Origin: Ranitomeya imitator
Lineage: Eukaryota
Direction: 5' to 3'
NCBI RefSeq assembly: GCF_032444005.1
Contig: NC_091282.1
Location: 326,554,001 to 326,618,000, forward strand
Length of the DNA: 64,000 nucleotides
The notes below the pieces were generated by a model that saw only the letters and a program-made list of their open reading frames with translations, was not told where the DNA came from and ran no database searches. The position numbers and the translations under genes were made by a program. This document shows, piece by piece, positions 5,296 to 60,119 of this stretch; the stretch's first letter is position 1, and the number at the start of each line of letters is the position of its first letter.

Positions 5296-6127
5296 CGTTA
5301 GTGAACAAAATGGTAATGATAACCCATCCGAGAAACAACATTCCATAGACAGCGGTGAAGAACAACCCGAAGAAATTTCTGGAGTTCAAAACTCAAGCAC
5401 TGAGAATGTACAGGATGTGACCAAAGATCAGAGTAAAGCTGAACAGCAAAAAGCAGGAGCTGAAGACCAACCTCAAGATGCCACTGCAGGACAAGATAAA
5501 GTTGAAGGCCAGCCCAAAGATGTAACTCTAGAAAATGATAAAACTGAAGGCCAACCTGAAGCTTACACTGCACAAAATGATAAAGTTGAAGAACAACCAA
5601 AAAATGATACTACAGAAATAGATAAGACTAAAGACCAACCCAAAGGTGACACTGCAGAAAATTATAAACCTGCTGAGCAACCCAAAAGTGACAGTACAGA
5701 AACAGATAAACCTGAAGAGCAACCCAAAGGTGAAACTGCAGAAAACGATAAACCTGAAGAGCAACCCAAGAGTGACAGTACAGAAACAGATAAACCTGAA
5801 GAACAACCCAAGAGTGACACTGCAGAAACTGATAAACCTGAAGACCAACACAAAGGTGACACTGCAGAAAACGATAAACCTGAAGAACAACCCAAGAGTG
5901 ACACTGCAGAAACTGATAAACCTGAAGACCAACACAAAGGTGACACTGCAGAAAACGATAAACCTGAAGAACAACCCAAGAGTGACACTGCAGAAACTGA
6001 TAAACCTGAAGAGCAACCCAAAGAGGCAACTGTAGAAAAATATGGAGCTGAATGCAAAATTAAAGAGGTCACTGAGAAAGAAGAAGTTAAAGATCAAAAC
6101 AAAGATAGTGTGCAGGGTAAAAATTGA
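5296..6127 (+). CDS. Large 3' coding exon of the CLUH-family gene: acidic low-complexity repeat tail
   Basis: tttgcag| acceptor at 5295; phase 2 joins exon 5101-5174 in frame (G-VSEQNGND...); open to TGA at 6125-6127; the exon may instead end at a donor at 6116/6117. Confidence 0.75.
5460..6040 (+). repeat. Coding 42-bp (14-aa) tandem repeat, about 13-14 units
   Basis: Unit gataaacctgaagagcaacccaaaggtgaaactgcagaaaac (DKPEEQPKGETAEN); includes an 84-bp dimer repeated twice. Confidence 0.95.
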
Positions 6128-9123
6128 GATGATGGTCAAACAGAGGAGTTTAAGGAGCCTCAAGAAGCTGAAGAAAGAAAGGGTCATGATAATGAAGCAA
6201 CTAAAAATGCTGATGCCCAAGATGTGGCTAAGGGACAAATTAATGCCACACAGTAGAACAATATAGCTAGAGAACAACATAATAAAGCCGATTAACACAA
6301 TGAAGGAGCAAGGGATGTAAAGAAACATTTAGCTGTTGTTGAGACAGAGGAAGAGGAAGTAAATGACAAAGTGATATCTTTGAGCTTCTGGCCTAGACCA
6401 AGAAACACTATATTAGGAATTCTTTCAGTGATGATCAACATGCGAATTACTTTTAGTTAGCTAGAAAATTAATTACCGCACTTCTTTTCCATGAACACTC
6501 AGGATTTCTGCGGTAATTTATTCACGGCAGAATATTATCACGATATTAGGTCCTGACTATTTTTTCTTGTAATGTGACATACACTTAGCATGGCTAATGT
6601 CAGATTTTATATAGAGATTTTCTATCACAATATTGCGACAGAACCTCTTTGTAAACATATACCGATAGTTCAGGATATCGGTGCATATAACTCAGGGCTC
6701 CTCAAATGTTGTGCATTCAATCCAATGCACTGATATGTCACTTGAAATGTTGTAGTTTTTTACAAAAATTCTCACTCAACACTAAAAACCATCCATGACA
6801 TGGTCCATGAACCTTAATGGGGACAAGAAAGTAATTCTGCACCAAGGAACAGCCCTATATCTAGTGCCTTACTATTCGCTGTGTTCTTGGCAAGGTAGGC
6901 TAGGGTTATGGAAAAGTTGTGTTAATATATTACATTAGTAACAATTATTAATCATGATACAAAGTCTAAGTGTTCTAACTTTTACTAACGTTATATACAC
7001 ATCAGGTGACGGAATGCAGGCAGATATCCTAAGAATATAGGACTAGCCGCTGTATCCCAATGTCTACATATTCTATAGATTTTCTTTTTGCTACTGTTTG
7101 GATACAAAAAATGCCAAAACTGTGCCTATATACACCCACAACTCTTATATCCAGGAATTACCCACCAAGAGAGCTTTCTTTGAAATGATCGTCTGGCCAA
7201 TACAGGTCTACCTTCTGAAACCCCCAGCGATTGTCCCTGAGAAAACAGCAATTTTATCACTAGAGGTCTAGTAAACCGGATACCATGTCGTCCTCCATAT
7301 TCATGAGCTCTGTATAACTCCACCCACAACACTGATTGGCAGCTTTCTGCCTCTGCACAGTGTACACAGAAAGCTGCCAATCAGTGGTGGGGGGCGGGGT
7401 TATACAGAGCTCAGCAGTCAGAGAACTGGAAGATCTGCAGCAGAGAAAACACTGATTTCATCCAGTACTCTGGATCTCTACCCCGACTCTCATGTGGGGT
7501 AGCAAAAACACTGGTGACAGGATCCCTTTAATTATGCTGTATGTGAACACATTTATGACCTCAGATTTTAGGTAGGTTTAGAATGACCATTAAAACATTG
7601 GTTAAAACATTGCAGTGACACCAATCACTTTATTTTTACTTTACTATCAGCCGTAAAATCTACTTTTTGTACCCCTGTGATATTTCTCACTGTAACCTGG
7701 ATGGAATAATTTTCATTTTCAGTAAATCTTATAATTAAGGAAATTTAAGTACGGATTGCTACCCTAAACATTTACTGTTCAAGCAATACATAGATGATGG
7801 TAAGGAAAGATGCCAAACACACAAACGATACGCAATATTACTATTTTATTACAAGTTGTTAACGGTTTGGTAAATTCTGAATGTTTTGTTAGATAAGTCC
7901 CCCTTCTTGCTTAGTCACCCGCACCATAACGCTACACGTTACTACAAGAGTTTTTGGCTAATAACCTTGGCAACAGTCACAACAAAAGTTTACATGTTGT
8001 GGTCTCAGTCCGTTGTCTTTTGACACCATCTTTACAGGAATCAAGAGGCTGAACCGATGGGAGAGATACATTTTACTATGCAACGATTGTGGTCTTTTTT
8101 TTTCTATTGTTTTTACTTTTTTAATAAAACAATTATTTTTTGCTGTCTAAAGACTTTACTATGCCTATACGTCTATAATAAACCTGGCAATCAGACCTTT
8201 TTGTATTTTATTTATTGTACTAGCTGAAGAGCCCGGCGTTGCCTGGGCATAGTAAATATCTGTGGTTAGTTATAGCACGTCACTTCTCTTATTTTCCCAT
8301 CACGCCTCTCATTTTCCCCCTCACACCTCTCATTTTCTCCCTCACTCCTCTCATTCCCCCCTAACACTTGTCATTTCGACCTCACATCTGTCGTTTTCCG
8401 ATCACTCCACTATTTTCCCTCACTCCTCTCATTTTGCACTCACACCTTTTCATTTTCACCTCACACCCCTCATTTTCACCTCAGTATATACATGTTTGCA
8501 TCTCCCCTATATATAGTATACACCTGTATGTCATCTCCTGTATATAGTATATACCTGTATGTCATCTTCTATATATAGTATATACCTGTATGTCATCTTC
8601 TATATATAGTATATACTGTATGTCATCTCCGACCCGAGGCGAGAGTGTCTACTCGAGATTCACCTACGGATACGGACAACGGAGATCTGGGATAATGGAC
8701 GGCAAATGAATTGAAAAACCTGGCCAGGTAAGAGACATTATTAGTTCTCTTTTATCTGCCCTGTATTATCCGAAAGATCTCTACGAGCCGTGTCACGCTG
8801 GGTTAGTCTAGTAGTGAGTAGATACCTATAAAACTCGGGTTACCATATTGTATAGATTTATGAGTCCTGTCCCTGGCAGTGTGTGAACAAGTGTGAAGGT
8901 TGTGGCATGTTATGAAAGAAGGATAAAAGTACGTAGAACAATAAGCCGAAATTGTTAGGACAAGTCTTATTAGTGAAGTCAGCCTAACTGGGTCATGTGG
9001 TTGCGTCCTTTCGGGGAGACCTCCGCCCATGCTTGACTCTCTTTGAGAAACTTGTTCCTTCATTTTTGGATAAGAGTTTGATAGAATGAGCCCAGGACAC
9101 GAGTCCATGAGCCTGGGACAAGT

Positions 9124-9258
9124 ATGATAACAGAGACGGAAAGTTTGGTGATCTGTTTGGTGTTGCTGATCCCGTTTGCGTGCATTGTAGGAATCAAGTT
9201 TATTCTGCACATTAGAAAGAACGGAGCAAATCAGCCCTTCAATATCTTAGCTCCCTAG
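9124..9258 (+). CDS. 44-aa pre-gag ORF with one predicted transmembrane helix
   Basis: MITETESLVICLVLLIPFACIVGIKFILHIRKNGANQPFNILAP*; same frame as Gag; shorter than the ORFs in the supplied track and read by hand. Confidence 0.5.
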   Translation: MITETESLVICLVLLIPFACIVGIKFILHIRKNGANQPFNILAP

Positions 9259-9342
9259 GAGAGAAGGCAACGAGACATCACTCCAGAGAGGTGGTTGTCC
9301 AAACGTCACCTAGGGTAGATACAGCTATTATTGAAAAGAAAA

Positions 9343-9905
9343 ATGGGAAATAAACAGACAAAATCCGTCTTAGGACAAGTAGAAGCAAAAGATATCATAC
9401 AGGAAAGATGTGGAAAGACAGTCAGAAGGCAGATCAGAAGGGTAAGAGAAAAATTGGGAATTTCAGAAGCACTTATGTTTAGCACTGAATGGGAAAGACT
9501 GAGTAAAGAACGAGGTGGAATTATCAAAGACAATGGGTGGGAAGAAATCATACACTGTATGATAAAGGTCTCAAAAACAGCTAAAGAGGAGAATTGGAAG
9601 TATGATCCAGACACTTCCAAATGGAGTATGGGTACGGGATAATGTTGTGCCACGACTCATTCAGTTCCTCCTCCTTACCTAGATCCGAATGTTCAACCAT
9701 TTGTACCTTCTGAAGGAGGACAAACCAAACCAAATTTATATCCTGGGTTAAATGGGGTGGAAGGATGGGTGTGCAAAAATTGTGGCCAGCAGAATCCAGA
9801 CTGGAGAACTGAATGTTCTGCCTGTGGGGCCCCCAGAGGTCATCAATTGTTAGCTCCTGTTAGGATAGTACCGAAACCCTTCAGAGAAACTGGTGTAGAT
9901 GGAGT
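9343..9905 (+). pseudogene. gag: ERV gag 5' part (MA, late domains, RanBP2-type zinc finger); disrupted
   Basis: MGNKQT myristoylation motif at 9343; in-frame TAA at 9640-9642; PPPY at 9667-9678; LYPGL at 9736-9750; C4 finger at 9766-9825; apparent 1-nt frameshift near 9905 into the long ORF. Confidence 0.85.
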
Positions 9906-12900
9906 ATGGCAACTAGATATCACCAAACCCGACAATACTTCCCTTGGTCCCCCGCTGAAGGAATGTCTCTTCTACATAATGCACCAGATCCTACCCAGTA
10001 CCCAGTTAGATTCGCACAGTATATACAGCAAATTATGCAGACTCATGCAGGAGTCTGGGCAGATGGAGAGGAATTATGTAGAATGAAAATGACTCCTGGT
10101 CTCTTCCAGGAACTGCTAACACATCTACAGGGACACAGGCCACAGGTGGGACAGGAGCTACAAGAGGGACAAGCGGGACAAGGTGCCTTACAAATGATAG
10201 AATCAGGAACACAATTTGTAGACCATTTAATAGTTTTCATGAGGCAGAAACAGAGGCAGAGAGGAACAACGGGAGTGGTGGCTCAGAGACCTGGACAATC
10301 GGTAGATGAATATTATCTAGGGGTAGAGAATAATTTTAGAGATGAAGGAATAGATCTAACCGCTCCAGGAATGATGAGGTTAATTACAAAAACCTTTATA
10401 GATGGATTGTCTCCAAAAGTAAAGGAAAAACTTAAGGCTGCAACTCCTGATTGGAGAACCTTGGAAGACCCACACTTGGCCAGGCAAAAAGCCGTAGGGA
10501 TAGAGTTGGATTTAAGAGAAAATCATAAGCCTGTCAGAATAGCGCAAGCAAACACAACAGGTGGAAGGGCAAGACATAATTTTCCCTGTCATTACTGCAA
10601 GAAACCAGGACATTTCCAGAGAGAATGTAGAAAGAAGCAGGCAGACATAAAATCAGGAAAATTTGTACCAAAGAATAAGCCCTCAGACATCCAACAGACA
10701 TCCATAGTGGATGGTCCCATACCAGACTCAGATTGGCTCAATGTGTTACAAACTTCCCTACCAGCTAGAAGACCTATAATACAGGTGAATGTGGGGGGAA
10801 GAGAGATTCCATTTTTAATAGATACAGGTGCAACTTCCTCAATTTTGAATCAAGATTTTCTTCCAAACCCGGAAGATATTTCACAACAAACAACTTTTGC
10901 TGAGGGTTATGATGGGGTAATTCGAACACTACCATATACTGTGCCCCTAGAGGTCTCATTAGGACCTAAATGTTTTGCATCCAGATTTTTGTATGCCAGA
11001 GGTGCCCCAACATGTTTGTTGGGAACTGATGTCTTGAAGAAATTAGAAGCTAACATCAATTTTAGGGAAGATGGCACAGTCATGCTGACTATCCCTGATG
11101 ATGCAGAAACATTAGAACAATATGTCAGAATTCAGGCTTTTGAGGATTATACTGAAGAAAAAGAGTACACCACAGATCTAGACCTCTCAACGGTCCCAGA
11201 AACACTGTGGGCACAGGGTGACACTGATGTGGGATTATTGCATATCTCTCCTGTAAAACTATCTGTGCAACCAGGAACTGTTCTCCCACAGCTCAGACAA
11301 TACCCTGTGAGTGCCCAGCAGGAACTAGCGATTACAAAACAGATAGAGGGATATAGAGAGAAAGGGGTTTTGGTAGAGATACAATCACCTGCTAACACTC
11401 CTCTGTATCCAGTCAAGAAGAGAACTCTTGATAAAGGTTCTATGCCCAAATATCGTATGGTACATGATCTAAGAGAAATAAACAAAGTTCTAGATCCAAT
11501 CACCCCAGTAGTACCCAATCCTCATACGTTACTATCACAGATACCAGCCAGTTCTCAAGTGTTTACTGTAATAGATCTTTCAAATGCATTTTTCTCGGTT
11601 CCTTTACACCAAGACAGTTGGCATTTGTTTGCATTTACATTTAAGGGCAAACAGTTGGCGTGGACACGCCTTCCACAGGGAATGATACACTCCCCTACTC
11701 TTTATTCAAATGCCCTACAAACAGTCCTTCAGAGGTTTGAACCCGAACCACAGGTAGTAATTTTGCAGTATGTGGATGACCTACTACTTTGCTGCCCAGA
11801 TCTAGAAACTGCAGAAAGGTCCACTGTGAGTTTACTATGTTTCCTAGAAAAAGAAGGGTGTAAAGTGAATAGACAAAAGCTACAAGTTTGTCAGACCAAA
11901 GTGGTCTTTCTAGGTCATTGCATTTCTCAAGGTAAAAAGCATCTTACACCTCAAAGAACTGAAGCAATAAGACAGATGAATGAGCCTAGAAATCATAAAC
12001 AGCTACGAGCATTTTTAGGAATAGTGTCTCATTGTAGACAATGGATTATACATGCCAGTCAACTAATGCAACCACTGTATGACTGTGTAAAAAGTGAACC
12101 TTACATGTTGACAAAAGAAGGTCAGATTTCGTTCCAACAATTAAAAGATGCCCTTGTTTCAGCTCCAGCGTTAGGGCTACCAGACTACACCAAACCATTT
12201 CAGCTTATGGCTGCAGAAGTTGATTCCCATGCTACAGGAGTTCTTACCCAGAAGCATGCAGGGAAACAAAGACCAATTGCATATCTTTCAGCAAGGTTAG
12301 ATCCCGTAGCTAGAGCAGCGCCAACCTGTGTACGTGTAGTTGTTGCTGTCTCACTATTGTTGGACAAAGCATCAGAAATTGTCCTAGAGCATCCACTCAC
12401 AGTTCAAACTACACATGATGTTTATGGGATATTAAACCAGGTCCAACCAAAACACATTTCCATGGCCAGACATTTGCGGCTGCAGTGTTCTTTGCTGCTC
12501 CCCTCTACTATCACATTTGCAAGGCTTCAGACTCTCAATTTAGCTACACTGCTACCTCTCGAGTCTAAAGGGGGGAATAAGGACACTGATCCACACGCAA
12601 ATTTTTTCCCTACAGATACACATGATTGTACAGAGCTCATTTTACAAGAAACGGTAGGCTTACCCAATGTATCCGAAACACCACTTCAAAATCCAGATTT
12701 AGAGCTGTTTATAGATGGTAGTAGGTTTGCAGATGACACAGGTAACTTCCATACAGGGTATGCAGTTGTGTCAGAATCTGAAACTCTCAAAGCAGAACCG
12801 CTTCCACCGAAACAATCTGCACAAGAAGCAGAACTAACAGCATTGATTGAAGCTCTAAAAATAGCTGAGAATCAGACAGCTAATATATACACTGATTCTA

Positions 12901-14282
12901 GGTATGCACATGGTATTGTGTTTGATTTTGGAGTAATCTGGAGAGCTAGAGGTTACATGACAGCGTCAGGACAACCTGTAAAACATGCTTCTCTGATCAA
13001 ACAGATCTTAGAGGCTGCACAAGAAACAAAAGAAGTAGCAGTAATCAAGGTAGCTGCACATGTGAGACTCGACACTAGGGAATCTAGGGGAAATGATAGG
13101 GCTGATAAAGCAGCCAAAGCAGCAGCAGTCAAACCCTTACAACAGGTCCATACTGTAAACCTCACAGAAAATACTGAAGATAGACTGAGACAAGCACAGG
13201 AAGATGCAGGAGAAGAGGAGAGGGACAGGTGGAAAAAGGAAGGGGCAGAAGAACAAGAGGGAATTTGGAAGAAAAATGGACTAATATGTCTACCTAGAGC
13301 CTGGTACCCGATAGTAGTTGGTGGATTACATCACCCTACGCATGTGTCTGCAAATGCAATGACACTACTGGCAAAGCAAGTCTGGTTGGCTCCAGGTTTT
13401 GGCAACTACGCAAGAGACTATTTTGCTGCATGCGCTATATGCCTGACACATAATCCCGGACAGACAGCAAAGACCCCTATGAAGCACCACGTCCGACCTC
13501 TCTACCCGTTTCAACGGTTGCAGATAGACTTTATCCAGCTGCCAAAGAGTAATGGGTATGAGTATGTGTTGGTGTGTGTGGACATGTTCTCGGGGTGGCC
13601 AGAGGCCTATCCAGTTCGGAAGGCTTCAGCTAAAAACACTGCTGTAAAGCTAGTTACCGAACTGGTGCCCCGTTATGGTCTCCCTGAAGTGATCGAGTCA
13701 GATAGGGGTACTCATTTCACTGGAGAAATATTTCAAAATGTACTAAAAATGTTGGGTGTTGAAAGTCAGTTACACACTCCGTATCATCCTCAAAGTTCTG
13801 GTAAGGTAGAACGCATGAATGGAACTTTAAAATTAAAAATACAGAAAGCCATGGCTGAAACAGGAAAGCCTTGGACAGAATGCCTTCCACTGGCCCTTTA
13901 CTCAATACGCAATACCCCAAGGGGTAAGACTAAACTGTCTCCATATGAAATTTTGTTTGGCAGGACTGCCAATTTAGGATGTTATTTTCCACAGCAACTT
14001 GTGTTAAATATTGAATCACTGACTTCCTATGTGCAAAATCTTCAGAAACAATTAACTAAGGTGCATGCACAAGTTTTTGCTTCCCTTCCAGATCCTGACA
14101 ACACTGAAGGAAGTCACAAGTTGGAACCAGGTGATCAAGTCTATGTAAAAAGACACACCAGAAAGGCTCTTGAACCAAGATTTGACGGACCCTTCCAAGT
14201 CCTGTTGACAACACCTACATCAGTCAAGCTTGAAGGAAAGGCATCATGGATACATGCAAGCCATTGCAAAAAAGCAGTATAA
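9906..14282 (+). CDS. pol: ERV Gag(CA-NC)-Pro-Pol open reading frame
   Basis: 1458 codons with no stop: CHYCKKPGHFQREC knuckle, LIDTGAT protease, LPQGMIHSP and YVDD RT, DGS/SAQEAEL/YTDSRYA RNase H, HHPTH..CAIC and D-D-E integrase, GPFQVLL..WIHASHCK tail. Confidence 0.95.
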   Translation: MATRYHQTRQYFPWSPAEGMSLLHNAPDPTQYPVRFAQYIQQIMQTHAGVWADGEELCRMKMTPGLFQELLTHLQGHRPQVGQELQEGQAGQGALQMIESGTQFVDHLIVFMRQKQRQRGTTGVVAQRPGQSVDEYYLGVENNFRDEGIDLTAPGMMRLITKTFIDGLSPKVKEKLKAATPDWRTLEDPHLARQKAVGIELDLRENHKPVRIAQANTTGGRARHNFPCHYCKKPGHFQRECRKKQADIKSGKFVPKNKPSDIQQTSIVDGPIPDSDWLNVLQTSLPARRPIIQVNVGGREIPFLIDTGATSSILNQDFLPNPEDISQQTTFAEGYDGVIRTLPYTVPLEVSLGPKCFASRFLYARGAPTCLLGTDVLKKLEANINFREDGTVMLTIPDDAETLEQYVRIQAFEDYTEEKEYTTDLDLSTVPETLWAQGDTDVGLLHISPVKLSVQPGTVLPQLRQYPVSAQQELAITKQIEGYREKGVLVEIQSPANTPLYPVKKRTLDKGSMPKYRMVHDLREINKVLDPITPVVPNPHTLLSQIPASSQVFTVIDLSNAFFSVPLHQDSWHLFAFTFKGKQLAWTRLPQGMIHSPTLYSNALQTVLQRFEPEPQVVILQYVDDLLLCCPDLETAERSTVSLLCFLEKEGCKVNRQKLQVCQTKVVFLGHCISQGKKHLTPQRTEAIRQMNEPRNHKQLRAFLGIVSHCRQWIIHASQLMQPLYDCVKSEPYMLTKEGQISFQQLKDALVSAPALGLPDYTKPFQLMAAEVDSHATGVLTQKHAGKQRPIAYLSARLDPVARAAPTCVRVVVAVSLLLDKASEIVLEHPLTVQTTHDVYGILNQVQPKHISMARHLRLQCSLLLPSTITFARLQTLNLATLLPLESKGGNKDTDPHANFFPTDTHDCTELILQETVGLPNVSETPLQNPDLELFIDGSRFADDTGNFHTGYAVVSESETLKAEPLPPKQSAQEAELTALIEALKIAENQTANIYTDSRYAHGIVFDFGVIWRARGYMTASGQPVKHASLIKQILEAAQETKEVAVIKVAAHVRLDTRESRGNDRADKAAKAAAVKPLQQVHTVNLTENTEDRLRQAQEDAGEEERDRWKKEGAEEQEGIWKKNGLICLPRAWYPIVVGGLHHPTHVSANAMTLLAKQVWLAPGFGNYARDYFAACAICLTHNPGQTAKTPMKHHVRPLYPFQRLQIDFIQLPKSNGYEYVLVCVDMFSGWPEAYPVRKASAKNTAVKLVTELVPRYGLPEVIESDRGTHFTGEIFQNVLKMLGVESQLHTPYHPQSSGKVERMNGTLKLKIQKAMAETGKPWTECLPLALYSIRNTPRGKTKLSPYEILFGRTANLGCYFPQQLVLNIESLTSYVQNLQKQLTKVHAQVFASLPDPDNTEGSHKLEPGDQVYVKRHTRKALEPRFDGPFQVLLTTPTSVKLEGKASWIHASHCKKAV

Positions 14283-15808
14283 AACTCATGATATTGATGT
14301 TAATAATGTTAACCACAACGAAGGCATGGGAAAGACTAAATTCTTTAGCCCCTTTGAACAATAGATTCGTACAACATCATAGAAAATTAGTGAACGACTT
14401 GTTAAACAATACACAAACCCTGACAGATTGTTGGATCTGTACCCATTCGCCGGTATCAGCCACAAGTATACCTTTTCTAGCAGTTCCCGTATTAGCAGAA
14501 GAAATATTCGCTTGGCCTAATTGTTCAGACAACCTGGCCAACAACCAAACTGGTAATACTAGGCTATGGAATACTACAATCGCCATACCAATTGTGGGAT
14601 GGGTAGAATTTCCTTGGTGGCAGGGTAATCTCTCAGGGAGTAGTACACATCTACAATATTTGGCCTATAAGGGTGGAGCCTGGGTCCCTAGGAATAAGAC
14701 TGGATTAACTAATTTAGGACAGGTCCCCACAGAAAATCTACAGCTCAGTTTCAGTACAACCGCCCCTCCCTCTGATGCTTTCAAACCTGTAGTATTGGAA
14801 AGATACATACATAATAGAAAATGGGAACATTCTGAGTTGTTCCCCCAAGGTGATGATAACAGTTGTACAAGTAAGCCGGGGAACCTGGTTTGTAATGAAT
14901 CTGATGAGTATGTCAACGGAATGCATGTATGTGGTAATCCCGCAGCCGGGTACTGTAGCCCCTTGGGACAAAAACCCTCTTGGTGTATGCTTCAAAATGT
15001 ATCTAGTTTTGTGGATTTGGCTCACAGATTGGTATTGCAGCACTCAGCTCTATGGGATCTGCCTGAAGGTACATTTTGGATATGCGGAGAAGGAGCATAT
15101 AAATGGCTTCCCGTAGGTATAAAGGGTACTTGTACATTAGGATGCCTAACCCCAGCTACTTTCATAATTTCAAATAAACAAGTGAATATGCAAGCCGTGC
15201 CCAAGCACACACTGTATAAAAGAGCTGCAGATAACTCACCACGTCCCTCGGGGAGGCCGCATATAGTACAAATGGGAATTCCCAACAAAATTGCTAGTAC
15301 CATTTTTATTTATCCTATGTTAACACAAATGTGGGATAAATTAGTTAGAGCCACGGATTATCTAGATGATCAGATCTGGGATATATTAGATATACTAAAC
15401 ACTAGTGTAGCTGTACAGAATCAGCTTATAATAGTCGTCAACCAACATACCCTGGTATTGGATTACCTAACTGCCTCACAAGGGGGTATGTGTCAAATCA
15501 TTGGACCCACCTGCTGTCATTATATAGACCCGAATAGTACTATGAGTATGACATTCAAATTAAAGGACGTACAACGACTCAGAGATCAGTATGACAAAGA
15601 CAATGACCAGAATAAGGATAGCTGGTGGTCAGATACCTTTTCTTTTCTTAACCCAGCCAACTGGTTCAGAGGGATCGGTGGGTGGGTTGCCGGGATTATG
15701 CAGAGCATAATACATATAGTTATGATTATTGTAATCATATATGTGTTATTCAAGATTGTACTCAAGGGTATCTCAGTATGCACAAATAAATTTTGTGTAA
15801 GAGTATAA
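14246..15808 (+). CDS. env: ERV envelope glycoprotein, gamma-type, intact
   Basis: 520 aa; signal peptide, CWIC (CXXC), LYKR| cleavage site, ISD-like NQHTLVLDYL, CQIIGPTCC (CX6CC), C-terminal TM segment; candidate splice acceptor ttttgcttcccttccag| at 14091. Confidence 0.95.
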   Translation: MDTCKPLQKSSIKLMILMLIMLTTTKAWERLNSLAPLNNRFVQHHRKLVNDLLNNTQTLTDCWICTHSPVSATSIPFLAVPVLAEEIFAWPNCSDNLANNQTGNTRLWNTTIAIPIVGWVEFPWWQGNLSGSSTHLQYLAYKGGAWVPRNKTGLTNLGQVPTENLQLSFSTTAPPSDAFKPVVLERYIHNRKWEHSELFPQGDDNSCTSKPGNLVCNESDEYVNGMHVCGNPAAGYCSPLGQKPSWCMLQNVSSFVDLAHRLVLQHSALWDLPEGTFWICGEGAYKWLPVGIKGTCTLGCLTPATFIISNKQVNMQAVPKHTLYKRAADNSPRPSGRPHIVQMGIPNKIASTIFIYPMLTQMWDKLVRATDYLDDQIWDILDILNTSVAVQNQLIIVVNQHTLVLDYLTASQGGMCQIIGPTCCHYIDPNSTMSMTFKLKDVQRLRDQYDKDNDQNKDSWWSDTFSFLNPANWFRGIGGWVAGIMQSIIHIVMIIVIIYVLFKIVLKGISVCTNKFCVRV

Positions 15809-15909
15809 AGTTTATTATTGCCGTACTAATTTTCTTTTATATTTTAGTATACTGCCGCATAAAGAAGAAAATGCACAAGCTTCATGCAAAAATTTATGAC
15901 AAATTATAA
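15778..15909 (+). pseudogene. Small transmembrane ORF overlapping the env 3' end, with one early stop
   Basis: MHK*ILCKSIKFIIAVLIFFYILVYCRIKKKMHKLHAKIYDKL* in the -1 frame relative to env. Confidence 0.4.
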
Positions 15910-15920
15910 AAGAATATGTC

Positions 15921-15931
15921 AAAGGGGGGAA
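15921..15931 (+). promoter_or_regulatory. Polypurine tract of the ERV
   Basis: AAAGGGGGGAA immediately before the LTR start TGTGGAG. Confidence 0.9.
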
Positions 15932-15932
15932 T

Positions 15933-16307
15933 TGTGGAGACCAGACTGAACCAAAGGATCCATTTTGTCTCCCAGATGAAATCTGCTTCTGCACAGCAAA
16001 CTTGACATTTCCTTTTATAGAAGTAATCACGCGCGCATTTCTCCTTGATATTGTAGCCTTTCACCCACATACCAGATATTGTAACTTTTCACTAGTATAG
16101 ATTTGCTTTGTAAGTGATTATGAAATATGAGCGCTTGTGCGCATGTCTGTAAATGCCTAACTTCTTACTATATAAAGAAGGGGCAGCGCCCAGTGAGGCA
16201 GGCGTGCTCCGGGGCTACCCCTGTTTATGAACACACAACCTTTGTGCTGCGTGTCATTTACTTGGATTCCTCAATCCAGGAAGCCAGGGACGGAAGAGGA
16301 CTCAACA
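15933..16307 (+). mobile_element. ERV 3' LTR (375 bp)
   Basis: TG...CA ends, TATATAAA at 16169-16176, host microsatellite resumes at 16308. Confidence 0.85.
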
Positions 16308-19784: not shown

Positions 19785-20716
19785 GATCAAACAACCTAAT
19801 TATTTTGCATTATTTTAGCTGGCTGTGGTTACACTGTAGTTGCTATACCAAAGGTCTTTCAAACTATCAAACTACTTCTGGACTGCCCATAGGCTTAAAA
19901 CATCCGTGCAGTCCACATTTGTCCCTGCGCTGACATTTTAAAATGTCAAAGCAGTCTAATCAGCTTTCGCAAGATTGTGAAGCTATGGTAGATGGAAGCA
20001 GACATCACACATTACCATGTCTACATTCTGGATCTCTGTCTACACAGCACTCTGTATACAGATTAGGAAGCACTGACAGTGCTTCCTCCTCCAAACCCTG
20101 TAATCACATGATAACTGGGTACAGGGAGGGAACAGGAATATCTAGGTCCTAGGAAACCCTGCAGGCTGAAATTCCACTGTAGCTGGAGATAATATACCAG
20201 TCCTAGTTACAAGAGAAATCAGCACAAAAAGGAATGAATTGATGTGTTAAAATGCCTCTTACAGGGAGGCAATGTATAAAATAAATGAAATAATAAATAA
20301 CAATTGCAAGAATGAAATCGAAAAAAGGCAGAAGAAAAAAAAACATTGCCTGTCTAACTCAATATTTCTAGCCCTGACTCCCTTTGAAAAAATATGTCCA
20401 ATATATAAAATGTATTTCTATAGGGGAATGCTATTTTAAATGTTTTAGGTGTCCTTTTTGGTCCTAAATAAAAACTAAAAAAGTGAAAACTAAACACATA
20501 TTTCCTATTTTCTCTACATTTTCCCCAGATATCAGCAAAAAAAATTTACAGAACCTTTTTTCCTCCTCCTTTCCAAGAGCCATAACTTTATTTTTCCAGT
20601 CATATGAGGGCTTGTTTTTTGCTGGACAAGCTGTACTTTTTAATCACACCATTCATTCTGAACAGTGTACTGGAAAATGGGAAGAAATTCCAAGTGAAGT
20701 GAAATTGCAATAAGAG

Positions 20717-21685
20717 TGCTGCTCCCATCCTGCTTCCCATTGTCATGTGCTGCTCCCATCCTGCACCCCCATTCAGTAATGTGCTGCTCCCATCCTGCGC
20801 ACCATTCTGTAATGTGCTGCTCCCATCCTGTAATGTGCTGCACCCATCCTGTGCCCAAATCCTGTCATGTGGTGCTCCCATCCTGCGCCCCCATCCTGTC
20901 ATGTGCTGCCCCCATTCTGTCATGTGCTACTCCCATCCTGCGCCTGTTCAGTCATGAGCTGCTCCCATCCTGTCATGTGGTGCTCCCATCCTGCACCCCC
21001 ATCCTGTCATGTGCTGCTCCCATCCTGCACCCCCATTCAGTAATGTGCTGCTCCCATCCTGCGCACCCACTCAGTAATGTGCTGCTCCCATCCTGCGCAC
21101 CATTCTGTAATGTGCTGCACCCATCCTGTGCCCAAATCCTGTCATGTGGTGCTCCCATCCTGCACCCCCATTCTGTCATGTGCTACTCCCATCCTGCGCC
21201 GTTCAGTCATGAGCTGCTCCCATCCTGCGCTCCCATCCTGTCAAGTGGTGCTCCCATCCTGCGCTCCTCCCATCCTGTCATGTGGTGCTCCCATCCTGCG
21301 CTCCCATCCTGTCATGTGGTGCTCTCATCCTGCGCCCCATCCTGTCATGTGCTGCTCCCATCCTGCACCCCCATTCAGTAATGTGCTGCTCCCATCCTGC
21401 GCACCCACTCAGTAATGTGCTGCTCCCATCCTGCGCACCATTCTGTAATGTGCTGCACCCATCCTGTGCCCAAATCCTGTCATGTGGTGCTCCCATCCTG
21501 CACCCCCATTGTCATGTGCTACTCCCATCCTGCGCCCGTTCAGTCATGAGCTGCTCCCATCCTGCGCTCCCATCCTGTCATGTGGTGCTCCCATCCTGCG
21601 CTCCTCCCATCCTGTCATGTGGTGCTCCCATCCTGCGCCCCATCCTGTCATGTGCTGCTCCCATCCTGCGCCCCATTCTGTCTTC
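20717..21685. repeat. Satellite-like array built on ctcccatcctgc/tgtcatgtg motifs with higher-order repeats
   Basis: About 970 bp of directly visible repeats; source of many spurious C/P/S/H-rich ORFs. Confidence 0.9.
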
Positions 21686-31496: not shown

Positions 31497-31660
31497 ATGG
31501 TTTCATCAATTCGCTTCATTCCATCAGTGCAGTCTTGTGCCGAGTACAACCCATCAGGACGCTCACAACCTGCAGAATGACATGCTGGACTTCCCTGCAG
31601 CCGAGATGATTTCTTCATGGCCTTTTTCTTGCTAACCATCTGCCATGTGTCTGATTCCAT
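31497..31660 (-). CDS. SRRD: SRRD first coding exon (CDS part, 164 bp; exon begins at 31667)
   Basis: tttctccag|gtccagaATG; MESDTWQMVSKKK...KRIDET AT|gtaagt; all seven exons join in frame to 912 nt (303 aa plus stop). Confidence 0.85.
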
Positions 31661-31755
31661 TCTGGACCTGGAGAAACCAAACAATGGCAGGATTATCCAC
31701 AGCGCTGTACATAGCACACACCGGGGGCATATATCTAGGAAGTCATGGAAGGAGC

Positions 31756-32751
31756 ATGATCAGAGCACACTGACAACCACTGAACTGCCGTACCATGTGA
31801 TTACTATGATCAGAGCACACTGACAACCACTGACCTGCCGCACCATGTGATTACTATGATCAGAGCACACCGACAACCACTGACCTGCTGCACCATGTGA
31901 TTACTATGATCAGAGCACACCGACAACCACTGACCTGCTGCACCATGTGATTACTATGATCAGAGCACGCTGACAACCACTGACCTGCTGCACCATGTGA
32001 TTATTATGATCAGAGCACACCGACAACCACTGACCTGCTGCACCATGTGATTACTATGATCAGAGCACACCGACAACCACTGACCTGCTGCACCATGTGA
32101 TTACTATGATCAGAGCACACTGACTACCACTGACCTGCTGCACCATGTGATTACTATGATCAGAGCACACTGACAACCACTGACCTGCCGCACCATGTGA
32201 TTACTATGATCAGAGCACACCGACAACCACTGACCTGCTGCACCATGTGATTACTATGATCAGAGCACACCGACAACCACTGACCTGCTGCACCATGTGA
32301 TTACTATGATCAGAGCACGCTGACAACCACTGACCTGCTGCACCATGTGATTATTATGATCAGAGCACACCGACAACCACTGACCTGCTGCACCATGTGA
32401 TTACTATGATCAGAGCACACCGACAACCACTGACCTGCTGCACCATGTGATTACTATGATCAGAGCACACTGACTACCACTGACCTGCTGCACCATGTGA
32501 TTACTATGATCAGAGCACGCTGACAACCACTGACCTGCTGCACCATGTGATTACTATGATCAGAGCACACAGACAACCACTGACCTGCTGCACCATGTGA
32601 TTACTACGATCAGAGCACACCGACAACCACTGACCTGCACCATGTGATTACTATGATCAGAGCACACCGACAACCACTGACCTGCTGCACCATGTGATTA
32701 TTATGATCAGAGCACACAGACAACCACTGACCTGCTGCACCATGTGATTAC
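31756..32751. repeat. 50-bp minisatellite, about 20 units
   Basis: Unit ttactatgatcagagcacaccgacaaccactgacctgctgcaccatgtga. Confidence 0.95.
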
Positions 32752-32807
32752 AAGCTGTCTCATTTCAGGTAACTTTTCTGAATAAGGTGTCATGTGTGTA
32801 CATCTAT

Positions 32808-35800
32808 ATATATATATCTACTATATAATTGTCTAAGAGTCACTTCCGTCTTTCTGTCTTTCTCTCTGTCTGTCTGTCACGGATATTCATTGGTCGCGGC
32901 CTCTGTATATCAAGGAAATCCAAGTCGCTGATTGGTCGTGGCTTTTTTTTGCACGACCAATCAGCAACGGGCACAGTCCGGAAGAAAATGGCAGCTCCTT
33001 ACTCCCCGCAGTCACTGCCCGGCGCCCGCATACTCTCCTCCAGCCACCGCTAACACAGGGTTAATGCCGGCGGTAATCGATCGCGTTATGCCGCGGGTAA
33101 CGCACTCCGTTACCGCCGCTATTAACCCTGTGTGTCCTCAACTTTTTACTATTGATGCTGCATATGCGGCATCAATAGTAAAAAATCTAATGTTAAAAAT
33201 AAAAAAACCTGCTATACTCACCCTCCGTTGTCCGCCGAGCTGCTCGCGACGGCCGCCATCTTCCGTTCCCAGCGATGCATTGCGAAATTACCCAGAAGAC
33301 TTAGCGGCCTCGCGAGACCGCCAAGTCATCTGGGTAATTTCGCAATGCATCCTGGGAACGGAAGATGGCGGCAGCCGCGCGCTCATCGCCTGCGCCAGAT
33401 CCGAAGGTGAGTATGTTACAACTACAATGGGCCCTCGGATCCGAAGGTGAGTATGTTTATTTTTTAACCTGTGATATACGTGGCTGGGCAATATACTACG
33501 TGGCTGGGCAATATACTACGTGGCTGGGCAATATACTACGTGGCTGGGCAATATACTACGTGGATGGGCAATATACTACGTGGATGGGCAATATACTACG
33601 TGGCTCTGTGCTGTATACTACGTGGCTGGGCAATATACTACGTGTGGCTGGGCAATATACTACGTGGCTGGGCAATATACTACGTGTGGCTGGGCAATAT
33701 ACTACGTGTGGCTGGGCAATATACTACGTGGCTGGGCAATATACTACGTGGCTGGGCAATATACTACGTGTGGCTGGGCAATATACTACGTGGCTGGGCA
33801 ATATACTACGTGTGGCTGGGCAATATACTACGTGGCTGGGCAATATACTACGTGTGGCTGGGCAATATACTACGTGGCTGGGCAATATACTATGTGTGGC
33901 TGGGCAATATACTACGTGTGGCTGGGCAATATACTACGTGGCTAGGCAATATACTATGTGGCTGGGCAATATACTACGTAGCTGGGCAATATACTACGTG
34001 GCTGGGCAATATACTACGTGGCTGGGCAATATACTACGTAGCTGGGCAATATACTACGTGGCTGGGCAATATACTACGTCGCTGGGCAATACACTACGTG
34101 GGCTGGGCAATAAACTACGTGACTGGGCAATATACTGCGTGGCTGGGCAATATACTACGTGGCTGGGCAATATACTACGTGGCTGGGCAATATACTACGT
34201 GGCTGGGCAATATACTACGTGGCTGGGCAATATACTACGTGGCTGGGCAATATACTACGTGGCTGGGCAATATACTAAGTGGCTGGGCAATATACTACGT
34301 GGCTGGGCAATATACTACGTGGGCATGCATATTCTAGAATACCCGATGCGTTAGAATCGGGCCACCATCTAGTCTATCTATATATATATAATTGCCTAAG
34401 GGTTTTTCCGTCTGTCTGTCTGTCTGTCTGTCCTGGAAATCCTGCGTCTCTGATTGGTCGAGGCCGCCCTGGCCTCGACCAATCAGAGACCGGCACAGCA
34501 TCGACGTAGAAATCCCGCGTCTCTGATTGGTCGAGGCCGCCAGGCCTCGACCAATCAGCAACGGGCACAGCGACGATGATGTCATAAAGGACGTAGACAT
34601 CCCGCGTCTCTGATTGGTCGAGGCCGCCAGGCCTCGACCAATCAGCAACGGGCACAGCGACGATGATGTCATAAAAGTTGCCTCGACCAATCAGCAACGG
34701 GCACAGTCTGCCGCGAATTCTGGAATCATCATTGTCCATATATTACAGGGACATGCATATTCTAGAATACCCGATGCGTGAGAATCGGGCCACAATCTAG
34801 TATATATATAATTGTCTAAGGGGCACTTCCGTGTGTCTGTCTGTCTGTCACGGATATTCATTGGTCGCGGCCAGCCAGTGGGCATGGACAAAAGGGCAGG
34901 GGAGGCCAGGAAGTATGCAGAGCGAGTCCCCACCCGCTCTGTACAGGCCCGGCCAGAAGCGCTGCAAAGGGGCCGCGACCAATGGATATATACTCACCTT
35001 CCGTCCGCGGCTGTCACCGCCGCATGTGCTGCTCTGTTTCCTGCTGTCGCGGCCGTCATCAATGACCGCGGCCGCTAATTTAGTCCCAGGCTTTTGGCCA
35101 CGGTAGGCCTAACAGCGCCCATGATTCCGGCCGGCTCCGCTCTCCTCTTGGCGACTCCGCCCCCTTAGATTGGTCGCGGCCAGCCAGTGGGCAGAGACAA
35201 AATGGCAGGGGAGGCCAGGAAGTATGCAGAGCGAGTCCCCGCCCACTCCGTACAGGCCCGGCCAGAAGCGCTGCAAAGGGGGCGGAGTCGCCGTGAGGAA
35301 GGCGGAGCCGGCCAGGACCATGGGCGCTGTTGGGCCTACCGCGGCCAAAAGCCGGGGACTAAATTAGCGGCCGCGGTCAGTGACGATGGCTGCGACAGCA
35401 GGAAACAGCGCAGCACATGCGGCAGTGACAGCCGCGGACGGAAGGTGAGTATATATCCACTAGTTGGTGGCCCGATTCTAACGCATCGCGTATTCTAGAA
35501 TATGCATGTCCACGTAGTATATTGCCCAGCCACGCAGTATATTGCCCAGCCACGTAGTATATAGCCCAGCCACGTAGTATATTGCACAGGCCACAAAGTA
35601 TATTGTACAGGCCACAAAGTATATTGCCCAGCCACGTAGTATATAGCCCAGCCACGTAGTATATTGCACAGGCCACAAAGTATATTGTACAGGCCACAAA
35701 GTATATTGCACAGGCTACAAAGTATATTGCAAAGGCCACGGAGTATATTGAATAGCGACGTAGTATACAGCACAGGCCATGTAGTATATTGCACAGCTCA

Positions 35801-36095
35801 CGTAGTATATACTCGCCTTCCGTCCGTAGCTGTCACTGCTGCATGTGCTGCGCTGTTTCCTGCTGTCCATCACTGACTGCGGCCGCTAATTTAGTCCCCG
35901 GCTTTTGGCCGCGGTAGGCCCAACAGCGCCCATGGTCTCGGCTGGGCAATATACTACGTGGCCTGTGCTATATACTATGTGGCTGGGCTATATACACTAC
36001 GTGGCTGGGCTTTTTACCGCGTGGCTGGGCTTTATATTACGTGGACATGCATATTCTAGAATACCCAATGCGTTAGATTCGGGCCACCATCTAGT
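32808..36095. mobile_element. Cluster of Helentron/DINE-1-like elements with 20-bp tandem repeats
   Basis: Repeated ends atatataattgtctaag... and ...catattctagaatacccgatgcgttagaatcgggccaccatctag; gtggctgggcaatatactac arrays at 33478-34322 and 35510-35810. Confidence 0.65.
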
Positions 36096-36239
36096 CTATT
36101 ACATAATTTGTGTCAGATGACGCAGCCAATCACAGCTTAGCTTACATCTCTCCACCACGATTCACAAGATGACAGCTGAATGCTGATTGGTTGCACTTCC
36201 CATATACAATCTCTTGCCCGCTCGTGCCGCTTACACCTA

Positions 36240-37075
36240 AAGAACATCTCTAGAATCCGCCCTTTTCTCACCATGGAGACAACAAAGACCCTGTCGCCCT
36301 GATCCACTCCCGCCTGGACTACTGTAACGCTCTATTAATTGGCCTCCCCCTCACTCGACTTTCCCCTCTCCAGTCCATCCTTAATGCAGCAGCCAGGGTC
36401 ATCCATCTGGCTAGTCATTACTCGGACACGTCCGCTCTTCGCCAGTCGTTACACTGGCTGCCCATTCATTACAGGATACAATTCAAAGTACCTGTTCTCA
36501 CCCACAAAGCTCTCCACAGTGCGGCACCCCCTTACATTTCCTCCCTCATTTCTGTCTATCGGCCTAACCGACCTCTGCGCTCTGCAAATGACTTTCGACT
36601 AATCTCTGCACTAATCCGTACCTCCCACTCCCGACTCCAAGACTTCTCCCGTGCTGCACCAATCCTCTGGAATGCTCTACCCCAAGATATTAGGACCATC
36701 CACAATTTGTATAGTTTTAGGCGCTCGCTCAAAACACATTTGTTCAGAGCGGCCTACCACGTTCACTAATCAGTTATTTTGTTTGTTTGTGTGTAGCCCA
36801 TTCAGTACTTCGATCTATCCCCCACTTCCTGAAGGTGGCTGGACCATCATTGTAAATACATCATTGTAAATACACACCTGTACTTTGCATCTCCCCCACC
36901 TCATTGTAGATTGTAAGCTCTCACGAGCAGGGTCGTCTTATTTCACTTTAATTATTGTATTGTTAACGTTGTTACTTATGACTGTTGTGTTTGAAACTGT
37001 TAAACTGTAAAGCGCTGCGGAATATGTTGGCGCTATATAAAGATTATTATTATTATTATATAAAGATTATTGTTA
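36240..37075 (+). mobile_element. 5'-truncated L2-clade LINE
   Basis: Decayed RT C-terminus (SRLDYCNALLIGLP..LQSILNAAAR..WLP..RIQFK..WNALP..LKTHLF) and a 3' tail gcgctatataaagattattattatt. Confidence 0.8.
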
Positions 37076-37199
37076 TTATTAATAAAGCTTATTTTATATT
37101 ATGGAAGTTCCCAATCCCATTGAGACCAGTAATTGCGTTCAGTAACTACAGACAGGAAAAATGCGCTGCACGGGAGATAACGTGATGCAGCGGCGCTTC

Positions 37200-37480
37200 C
37201 TACCTGTACTTCTATTTGGGCAACACAAGGATCTAATGATAGTCCAGGCTTTTCCTACTTTCCAAGCAAAAGTCGCATCATATCTGCGCCAGCGCACAAC
37301 TAATTACGTCACATCCCTGCTTCTGAAAGGTCACAGCCACCAATCAATGTGCAGACATAGAAGCGAGGCTTGGGACGCACAGCAACTTCCGGTCTCTTGA
37401 AACGCAGAAGATACAACACAAGACGGTGGGACCGATCCAGCGCAGCCCGGGATCCAGCTCCTTTACCGACTGCTGTACGT
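37200..37480. promoter_or_regulatory. Putative bidirectional promoter and non-coding first exons of SRRD and HPS4
   Basis: Unique CpG-containing sequence between divergent genes with ACGTCA (CRE half-site), CCAATC and ACTTCCGG (ETS); candidate donors acag|gtagga on - (near 37203) and gct|gtacgt on + (near 37474). Confidence 0.5.
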
Positions 37481-37827
37481 CACTCCATTGTTGGTTGTTG
37501 TGTGTGCACGACCCGGTCACAAATGTGTGCTGATGACAGACCCCAGACCAGACCCTCCCATTAATAAAGGCTACAGACCCCAGACCAGACCCTTCCATTA
37601 ATAAAGGCTGCAGACCCCAGACCAGCATGTGCTGCGCTGTTTCCTGCTGTCCATCACTGATTGCGGCCGCTAATTTAGTCCCCGGCTTTTGGCCGCGGTA
37701 GGCCCAACAGCGCCCATGGTCCCGGCCGGCTCCGCCCTCCTCACGGCGACTCCGCCCCCTTTGCAGCGCTTCTGGCCGGACCTGTACGGAGTGGGCGGGG
37801 ACTCGCTCTGCATACTTCCTGGCCATA

Positions 37828-38185
37828 CTTGTATGAATGTCAGGGAACGGGAATGGTTGTGCTCCACCTAGTGGTCACTTGTATGAATGTCAGGGAATGT
37901 GTGAGGTTGTGCTCCACCTAGTGGTCACTTGTATGAATGTCAGGGTATGTGAGAGGTTGTGCTCCACCTAGTGGTCACTTGTATGAATGTCAGGGAATGT
38001 GTGAGGTTGTGCTCCACCTAGTGGTCACTTGTATGAATGTCAGGGAATGTGTGAGGTTGTGCTCCAACTAGTGGTCACTTGTATGAATGTCAGGGAATGT
38101 GTGAGGTTGTGCTCCACCTAGTGGTCACTTGTATGAATGTCAGGGAATGTGTGAGGTTGTGCTCCACCTAGTGGTCACTTGTATG
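37828..38185. repeat. 50-bp minisatellite, about 7 units
   Basis: Unit gctccacctagtggtcacttgtatgaatgtcagggaatgtgtgaggttgt. Confidence 0.93.
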
Positions 38186-47931: not shown

Positions 47932-48063
47932 NNNNNNNNNNNNNNNNNNNNNNNNNNNNNNNNNNNNNNNNNNNNNNNNNNNNNNNNNNNNNNNNNNNNN
48001 NNNNNNNNNNNNNNNNNNNNNNNNNNNNNNNNNNNNNNNNNNNNNNNNNNNNNNNNNNNNNNN
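47932..48063. other. Assembly gap (N run)
   Basis: 132 N; hides the outer end of the Gypsy 5' LTR and its TSD. Confidence 1.
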
Positions 48064-49143
48064 NTCTGTCAGTAGGACATACCCTCCTTAGTAGAGATGG
48101 GGTCTGGTGGGTTCAGCTTAACAGTTACAAAAGGTCAGAGTTCGGGTACCAGAAAAGTACCCGAACCTGGACCCCATTCACTTGAATGGGGGGCCCGAGC
48201 ATCCAGTGTTTGCGCTGTAATGTGCATGGCAGCGCGGCAAACACCGCTTCTGATGGGCGGTGAAATCATTCCCGCCAGTCAGAGAGCTGAGGTTCCCACG
48301 GTGTCAAAAGACAGCGTGAGCCCACAGTTGTGATCGGAGGTATGAAGTTTACCTCCGGTCACTGTTGTCATCTGATGGGACTACAGCTCCCATCAGCCGA
48401 TGCCTGCTGCCGCTAATAACAGCGAGAGCAGGAGGGGCAGATGGGAGTATTCATCAGCCGCTGTAAATAATTAAAAAAAAAAAACTGCGTGGGTTCCCCT
48501 GTATTTTTGTTAACCATCCAGGCATCCAGTTTTCAAGAATAGAGGGGTTCCCACGGCGTATTTTTTAATTATTTAAATAAATATACTTTTTAAAAAAACA
48601 GTGTCGGGTCCCCCATTTTTGACAACCAACCTTGCTAAAGCAGACAGTGAACCAAAATGTTATGTAAAATGTTCCCAATAAAAGTTTCAACTCCCACAAA
48701 AAAAGCCCCCGCCCTGGTTTGTTATCTGTTAGCGGAAATATAGGGGGCTTCCATGTTACTGGTAGCACAAAGGCTCTGGAATAGCACTATTGCTCCTCGC
48801 CCGCCAAAATAAATCCAGCAAATTCTGCACTTCCAAATCCAAATGTACCCCTCCCTTCGTGTGCTTAAACCACATTTAGTGCCCACATGTTTGGCTTTTC
48901 TGTAGTAATGAGAGCCCAACTAATTTGCGGGGTGTGTGTCTCCAGAAGCACGAGCCGGGCAGAATATACTGAGCACTACACTGGCATATTTGCAATCTCT
49001 GCAACATGCATTGCTGCTTGTTTCTGGAAAACACCCATGTAGTCAAATCATCACTATACTTGTAGATAAATTCCCAAAGAGGTATCATTTCCAAAAATGG
49101 GGTCACTTTCTGCTGTTCTGGCACTTAGGGTCTCTGTATATGG

Positions 49144-57125: not shown

Positions 57126-57269
57126 NNNNNNNNNNNNNNNNNNNNNNNNNNNNNNNNNNNNNNNNNNNNNNNNNNNNNNNNNNNNNNNNNNNNNNNNNNN
57201 NNNNNNNNNNNNNNNNNNNNNNNNNNNNNNNNNNNNNNNNNNNNNNNNNNNNNNNNNNNNNNNNNNNNN
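57126..57269. other. Assembly gap (N run)
   Basis: 144 N. Confidence 1.
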
Positions 57270-59987: not shown

Positions 59988-60119
59988 NNNNNNNNNNNNN
60001 NNNNNNNNNNNNNNNNNNNNNNNNNNNNNNNNNNNNNNNNNNNNNNNNNNNNNNNNNNNNNNNNNNNNNNNNNNNNNNNNNNNNNNNNNNNNNNNNNNNN
60101 NNNNNNNNNNNNNNNNNNN
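59988..60119. other. Assembly gap (N run)
   Basis: 132 N. Confidence 1.

Follow-up and report, generated by a model that had tools for sequence, protein, structure and literature searches.

Organization of the provirus and its genomic family

The DNA analyzed here, referred to as the window, is a stretch of 64,000 nucleotides (nt) from Ranitomeya imitator (NCBI RefSeq assembly GCF_032444005.1, contig NC_091282.1, positions 326,554,001 to 326,618,000 of the forward strand). It contains one broken copy of a young, epsilon-related family of frog endogenous retroviruses (ERVs) with a gamma-type env gene. We lean toward the reading that this family keeps a small open reading frame (ORF) ahead of gag, the leader ORF, which likely encodes a single-pass membrane accessory protein of 34-53 residues that may act in virus release or against host restriction. 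The original prediction had described the element as a candidate complex amphibian retrovirus with a pre-gag transmembrane (TM) ORF, a RanBP2-type zinc finger in Gag, a stop-free gag-pro-pol, an intact env, and a second TM ORF at the env end. Its span proved exact, since homology to sister copies begins at 8631 and the 3' long terminal repeat (LTR) ends at 16307. The features, all on the plus strand, are as follows (aa, amino acids).

8631..16307, +, provirus copy of subfamily A, lacking the 5' LTR and primer-binding site (PBS), within a 31-34-nt satellite; delimited by homology to sister copies
8725..8733, +, predicted major splice donor (intron GT at 8728-29); consensus donor in the tested A, B, C, D, and F copies
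9124..9258, +, leader ORF, 44 aa, single predicted TM helix (residues 9-27)
9343..10736, +, gag, encoding matrix (MA), a spacer with PPPY and the finger, capsid (CA), and nucleocapsid (NC); broken in the window copy
9667..9678, +, PPPY late-domain motif
9766..9825, +, RanBP2-type C4 zinc finger (Pfam PF00641), just ahead of the predicted capsid start (9856)
10734..10736, +, gag/pro junction; a sense codon only in the window copy, UGA in the family
10737..14282, +, pro-pol, open; protease (DTGA), reverse transcriptase (RT; YVDD), RNase H, and integrase with an MLV-type C-terminal domain
14246..15808, +, env, gamma-type, open, 520 aa; CWIC, CX6CC, and membrane anchor
15790..15909, +, hydrophobic-then-basic frame overlapping the env end in the -1 frame, without an open start codon (stop-to-stop frame)
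15921..15932, +, polypurine tract, from the sequence
15933..16307, +, 3' LTR, 375 bp, TG...CA, from the sequence and sister copies

A 1-kb gag query against the 5.96-Gb genome gave 40 scored places at 99-100% identity from 1346 candidates, and the 39 places other than the window copy were taken as subfamily A. A subfamily-specific 32-mer from the finger had 157 exact matches in the genome. Subfamily B comprised the first 20 plus-strand matches of a 30-mer having 438 matches, and subfamily C 20 of the 40 matches of a variant env-end query. Families D, E, F, G, H, I, and K (40 loci) were located using the Gag proteins of other frogs as queries. The survey of open frames in A, B, and C covered the 10 kb retrieved per copy.

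The element is about 8.1 kb long, with about 125 nt between the env stop and the LTR. The LTRs of sister copies are 375 bp, the PBS begins 5 nt past the LTR, and 4-bp target-site duplications were found in 26 of the 30 sister copies having both ends. The mean identity of LTR pairs was 99.6% (14 of 32 pairs identical), and gag, pol, and env were all open in 6/39 A, 11/20 B, and 1/20 C copies; the family is young, high-copy, and recently amplified. Compared with A, subfamilies B and C were about 98% identical in pol and 75-79% identical in gag.

Leader ORF upstream of gag

The predicted pre-gag TM ORF was confirmed at 9124-9258, where it is kept across families A to F and bears the mark of purifying selection. 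An ATG-started ORF of 34-53 aa with a single TM helix lies about 220-460 nt upstream of gag in 97 of the 102 copies of these families (39/39 A, 20/20 B, 19/20 C, 7/7 D, 5/7 E, and 7/9 F), the version in the window having a private proline inside the helix. The carrier families share one RT clade (support 0.99), which extends to RT identities to the window as low as 58% (B 99, C 99, D 80, E 58, and F 59%). The peptide tails are 7-26 residues long, and no motif is common to A-D, E, and F.

One leader each from A, B, D, E, and F was subjected to 1000 dinucleotide shuffles. ATG ORFs of 30 aa or more reaching a KD19 of 2.5 or higher turned up in 1, 0, 0, 1, and 3 of the 1000 shuffles, respectively. 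The ratio of nonsynonymous to synonymous substitution rates (dN/dS), computed on natural copy pairs, was 0.31 for A-B, 0.34 and 0.29 for two F-F pairs, and 0.15 for A-D, the last being near saturation; env gave 0.29 for A-B in comparison. Read in the remaining two sense frames, the A-B leader gave ratios of nonsynonymous to synonymous proportions (pN/pS) of 3.6 and 2.7. In the pooled leader changes, 17 of 37 were synonymous, which is an excess (p 0.003-0.04 for a transition weighting, kappa, of 1-5). The leader ORF was also considered as a glycoGag; it has its own stop, and this identity was ruled out because its frame relative to gag is not kept in A-D (offsets of -219, -229, -218, and -242).

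Several observations weigh against a conserved protein. Single leader pairs became weak after transition weighting (p 0.07-0.15 at kappa 2-5), and one control frame in F gave 0.45. The proteins of E and F fail to align with that of A (pN/pS 0.8-1.1), so their homology rests on position, hydropathy, and RT clade. The ORF is absent from G (0/5), H (0/5, that is, 0/4 plus L094), and K (0/2 with an ATG), and because H sits in the A-F RT clade, either loss or later origin is required. Intactness inside a young subfamily is uninformative, since even gag, with ten times the length, is unbroken in 31/39 A copies. No protein-database homologue was found by alignment, and Atlas matches reached only scores below 0.9. 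No acceptor adjoins the leader ATG in A-E, the Kozak context of this ATG is weak in A-D, and what is conserved at the 3' end of the ORF may be a splice acceptor instead of a coding sequence. A single genome supplied all of the leader data.

Among the last 20 loci retrieved, the leader ORF was seen only in F-type copies (3/4), and family I was ambiguous, with a 27-aa candidate in 3/5. In the K leaders (L117 and L118), a frame without an ATG lies about 400 nt upstream of gag and runs from hydrophobic to basic residues, possibly a degraded or spliced counterpart of the leader ORF.

Predicted expression and function of the leader ORF

The predicted donor lies 394-450 nt from the leader ORF in A-D and F; no consensus donor was matched in E. 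An acceptor-like site directly precedes the ATG in 2/3 F copies. In A-D, 9-11 ATGs lie upstream of the leader ORF, and scanning on genomic RNA is thus unlikely to be efficient; for the same reason, the ORF is probably translated from a short spliced RNA. The splicing itself stays a guess, because A-E are without an acceptor next to the ATG. Among 16 sequencing runs, none was listed as an RNA holder, and contigs from four runs contained six joints, none of them GT-AG; these observations count neither way on expression, and a contig break compatible with an env acceptor at 14224 fits a family D variant equally well.

We consider it fairly probable that the leader ORF is translated. Its layout (short N-terminus, one TM helix, and cytoplasmic tail) resembles that of HIV-1 Vpu in hydropathy and charge only, and the charges suggest an N-out/C-in topology in A-D. 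The cytoplasmic tail is far shorter than that of Vpu. In the proposed scheme, genomic RNA would serve for Gag and, by UGA readthrough, for Gag-Pol, and Env would be translated from an RNA spliced at the 8728 donor. The leader microprotein would be placed in secretory membranes, where, by analogy with Vpu and glycoGag, it may help virus release or act against a host restriction factor. Retroviruses are known to have small membrane proteins directed against restriction factors, including Vpu and glycoGag (PMC7764263). The likeness to Vpu and MLV glycoGag, as small or N-terminal single-pass membrane proteins, is a functional analogy only; no sequence similarity was shown, and glycoGag is a Gag extension, unlike the leader ORF with its own stop. 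If the protein is made, aid to release or removal of a host membrane restriction factor is a plausible but tentative assignment by this analogy.

The leader ORF could instead be a regulatory upstream ORF (uORF), or a by-product of a T-rich cis element for splicing, packaging, or ribosome entry, in which the peptide is irrelevant. The leader has many short uORFs, the overlapping frames are hydrophobic too, the statistics are modest, and the synonymous A-D differences at the end of the ORF exchange pyrimidines beside two AG dinucleotides. We regard this explanation as improbable, given that composition-preserving shuffles almost never yield such an ORF, the A-B synonymous bias is frame-specific, and E and F reach the same protein layout from unrelated nucleotide sequences. 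Provided that the ORF is translated, its shortness, its one TM helix, and the above tails without a common motif would also suit a viroporin-like, membrane-modifying oligomer in place of an antagonist of host proteins; on inspection, no polar pore-lining residue is kept across families, and we give this role a small chance.

A cell-cell fusogen of the FAST/sORF2 type, as encoded upstream of gag in Drosophila MDG1-group retrotransposons (PMC11952523), shares the position of the small TM ORF, and the subfamily B env-end frame described below combines a TM segment, cysteines, and a polybasic patch. However, the MDG1-group proteins are longer (63-107 aa versus 34-53 in the leader), myristoylated, and polybasic, have an ectodomain of about 30 residues versus at most 8, and belong to Metaviridae without env (PMC11952523). 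The leader peptide has neither MGxxxS/T (N-myristoylation) nor a polybasic patch, and the frog elements have their own env, which makes a fusogen highly improbable. A translated single-pass accessory protein is the reading that we prefer.

Hydrophobic frame at the env end

A hydrophobic frame does lie at 15790-15909, as the original prediction had noted; the TM ORF that it had proposed there was not upheld as a working one, as the frame has no open start, is broken in C, and is absent from D and E. The in-frame ATG at 15778 is closed at codon 4 by a stop at 15787-89, and the same closure was found in 33/33 A, 18/18 B, and 19/20 C scorable copies (70/71). The frame exceeded shuffles (0-1/1000; 1/1000 for the window) in a region that was picked post hoc. 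A longer version is present in B, and a collinear one with an internal stop in C; between B and C, 70 of 120 nt are identical and pN/pS is 0.55 (p 0.04, unweighted). On the basis of the longer B version, the collinear C version, and this ratio, the frame probably once coded, and it is probably a decaying second TM ORF. Alternatively, env exchange may have left it behind as a vestige of a former env anchor. Expression by -1 frameshifting from env was rejected, since inspection revealed no conserved slippery heptamer.

A still-working 3' accessory gene, reached through splicing or a non-AUG start, appears unlikely. It would agree with the homologous TM-plus-basic peptide in A, B, and C, in the modal -1 frame in all three, and with the B-C ratio and the shuffles. 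The AG before the in-frame ATG is also retained in A and B but has been lost from C and D, the two groups with a broken or missing frame. The SnRV 3'ORF likewise overlaps the env end in another frame, but it has 205 codons and its own start, in contrast to 39-68 codons and a closed start in the frog frame (PMC12193657). Besides the closed start ATG, the internal stop in C, and the absence from D and E, A copies carry 21-25-nt deletions relative to B, and T-run frameshifts occur in 7/19 B copies, all of which speak against a working gene.

RanBP2-type finger in Gag

The finger predicted in Gag exists (Pfam PF00641, 30.3 bits; cut-off 27), and it shows the signature W-x-C-x(2,4)-C-x3-N-x6-C-x2-C of RanBP2-type fingers (PMC12383448). 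This signature was whole in 86/86 A-D copies and was also found in representatives of E, F, H, I, and K; it was absent in G. HMMER gave 64 Gag matches, although a Gag query against a word-indexed protein set found no homologue, and the Gag N-terminus had no usable match in the Atlas. The finger was present in 11 of 16 selected HMMER matches, finger-bearing Gags being found in Anomaloglossus, Lithobates, Engystomops, Phyllobates, Ranitomeya, Ascaphus, Rhinoderma, Bufo, and RMERV. The novelty attached to it could not be sustained, as finger(s) of this type are on record in AnERV9 (bioRxiv 10.1101/2024.07.05.601823) and occur in the RMERV Gag; the finger is a lineage-wide, already known feature. 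AnERV9 also resembles the frog element in having gag in frame with pro-pol, and differs in having two fingers and no myristoylation signal (10.1101/2024.07.05.601823). In RMERV Gag (AWS20966.1, P0013), PPPY is followed by the same finger and MA and CA are alignable (E 3e-18); it differs in its 873 aa, its Macro domain insert, and an identity of about 25%.

The AlphaFold model of an unbroken natural sister Gag had a mean predicted local distance difference test (pLDDT) score of 71.5, with about 60-67 in the finger. In this model, the finger would end a disordered, PPPY-bearing spacer directly ahead of the capsid hairpin, and the modeled capsid fold matches MLV CA (E 2e-6). The NZF class of these fingers has a ubiquitin-binding Thr-Phe pair (PMC12383448), the location of which within the finger is partly our assumption. 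After the second cysteine, G-Q is found in A-F instead of this pair. The aromatic residue at 17 and Asp at 4 that mark RNA-binding RanBP2 fingers such as those of ZRANB2, FUS, and RBM10 (PMC6384913) are likewise missing; by our own mapping onto that numbering, the family finger has Pro after the conserved Asn and Gly before Trp. The best sequence match to the finger in the PDB was nonetheless RBM10 (E 0.004). The finger is an old Gag spacer module near PPPY, in the slot equivalent to p12, and is most likely a protein-binding module; through protein binding, it may have a role in assembly or nuclear access.

Other Gag arrangements were also observed. A Macro domain is inserted within Gag 3' of the finger in P0010, P0013, and P0023 (Ascaphus and RMERV records; Pfam 88-95 bits), and macro domains have been mentioned in fish epsilon-like ERVs (PMC4977317). 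Two annotated frog proteins (P0004 and P0011) join a TRIM-like N-terminus to the CA-NC of this lineage and may be gene-model artefacts or real fusions. Family G (L100-L104) has Gags of 866-983 aa with internal tandem repeats of variable length, without the RanBP2 finger and without an N-terminal Gly.

Gag breakage and the gag/pro junction

The gag of the window copy carries a stop at 9640-42 and a frameshift at about 9905, both of them private, each being absent in 39/39 A copies. Since these flank the finger, it is out of frame with both neighbors in this copy. A programmed stop or frameshift within gag was ruled out, both changes being private to the window copy. The reported stop-free gag-pro-pol is literally open here at 9906-14282, but it reflects a private loss of the stop. 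The junction codon was TGA in 38/39 A, 20/20 B, and 19/20 C copies (77/79), the anchor motif not having been located in the two misses, and at position 10736 the window differs from 38/38 covering A copies. A stop-free gag-pro-pol was thus ruled out as a family feature. Pol would be produced as Gag-Pol from genomic RNA through UGA readthrough; simple folding, a model that excludes pseudoknots, revealed no stable structure 3' of the UGA (z 0.19). A UGA junction is on record for SSSV, ZFERV, and RMERV (PMC13517186), and RMERV was compared here by its Gag and this junction.

Classification and env exchange

RT trees were built with FastTree from 63 and 68 sequences, in which the Pol of XTERV1, ZFERV, WDSV, SSSV, SnRV, and RMERV were not present under those names. 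The RT fell within the frog (anuran class I ERV) clade with a support of 0.995, nearer to WEHV1 than to MLV, the grouping with WEHV1 being weakly supported (0.76-0.77). The nearest named RT was a Ranitomeya variabilis protein (99%). The env was intact as predicted, open at 14246-15808 with CWIC at residue 62 and CQIIGPTCC at 416 of its 520 aa (TLV_coat, 38.1 bits), and CXXC in the surface subunit with CX6CC in the TM subunit is the gamma-type Env signature (PMC9967133). No canonical R-X-K/R-R site was found in the window Env.

The assignment to an amphibian retrovirus stood. The element does not fit a gamma-like virus with extras, as the RT is epsilon-related, the env is gamma-type, and this combination has already been described in anuran ERVs (bioRxiv 10.1101/2024.07.05.601823; 10.1101/2021.11.23.469661). 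AnERV9 and other ERVs of this kind share with the frog element an epsilon-related RT, a gamma-type env with CWIC/CWVC, and one CCHC knuckle (10.1101/2024.07.05.601823). The element falls outside the genus Gammaretrovirus in having an RT outside the MLV clade and a UGA junction instead of the UAG readthrough with a pseudoknot that marks that genus. It also departs from the genus Epsilonretrovirus, which has a tRNA-His primer, orf a and orf b after env, and a genome of 12.7-13 kb; the frog element has the size and post-env length given above and a PBS matching the 3' end of genomic tRNA-Lys(TTT) genes. ARAGORN found two such genes in an array locus and none in the first two tRNA-pattern loci.

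In most A copies, the PBS exceeds the tRNA-Lys(TTT) complement by one base, and the match is exact in 3 (L001-L039), as expected if reverse transcription recopies the tRNA. The tRNA-Lys(TTT) array is tandem with a spacing of about 1,008 bp (G000:C4:660778788 onward, L122), and 377 pattern matches were found genome-wide.

Env was 95% identical among A-D, whereas the pol of D was 70-77% identical, from which env exchange between families was deduced. The window env (14246-15808) is about 95% identical to those of L041, L062, and L084 although gag, LTR, or pol differ by 20-30%, and in this comparison the likeness stops directly past the env stop. The sequences indicate that env was exchanged recently among families. 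L019, L061, L071, and other A/C copies have large internal env deletions, some in frame, with the signal peptide and membrane anchor kept.

Elsewhere in the window, other satellite arrays (units of 20, 22, 30, 34, 42, and 50 nt) and inverted repeats lie at 5376-6131, 20699-21678, 31606-32805, 33477-38235, 51342-51664, and 57703-62393, and runs of N at 47932-48064, 57126-57269, and 59988-60119.

Novelty and implications

Epsilon-related amphibian ERVs with a gamma-type env have been stated to carry no accessory gene (bioRxiv 10.1101/2021.11.23.469661); the conserved leader TM ORF would set the present family apart from this description. The main text of the AnERV preprint makes no mention of accessory, leader, upstream, or PBS (10.1101/2024.07.05.601823). 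Searches of the open-access literature turned up no amphibian ERV with a described TM ORF in its leader; an earlier annotation may nonetheless exist. WDSV and WEHV, with a related RT, have an accessory ORF (orf c) upstream of gag, but as described it ends 7 nt before gag and its product is mitochondrial; their tRNA-His primer, UAG junction, and orf a/b after env have no counterpart in the frog element (PMC3185748).

In summary, the suggestion of an unrecognized lineage with accessory functions holds for one genuine extra, the leader ORF, and fails for the finger, the stop-free gag-pol, and a working env-end ORF. These three features add little, as the stop-free junction is a single-copy artefact, the finger is published, and the env-end frame looks vestigial. 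A more speculative and somewhat doubtful extension is that this still-amplifying frog clade is cryptically complex, with a spliced Vpu-like leader protein directed against an amphibian restriction factor and, until recently, a second TM protein at the env end. Should it be borne out, a leader microprotein conserved by purifying selection would amount to an accessory gene that had been overlooked, below the usual length for ORF finders, the RNA of which should be easy to look for in young, high-copy families, and it would point to membrane-level host defence in amphibians.

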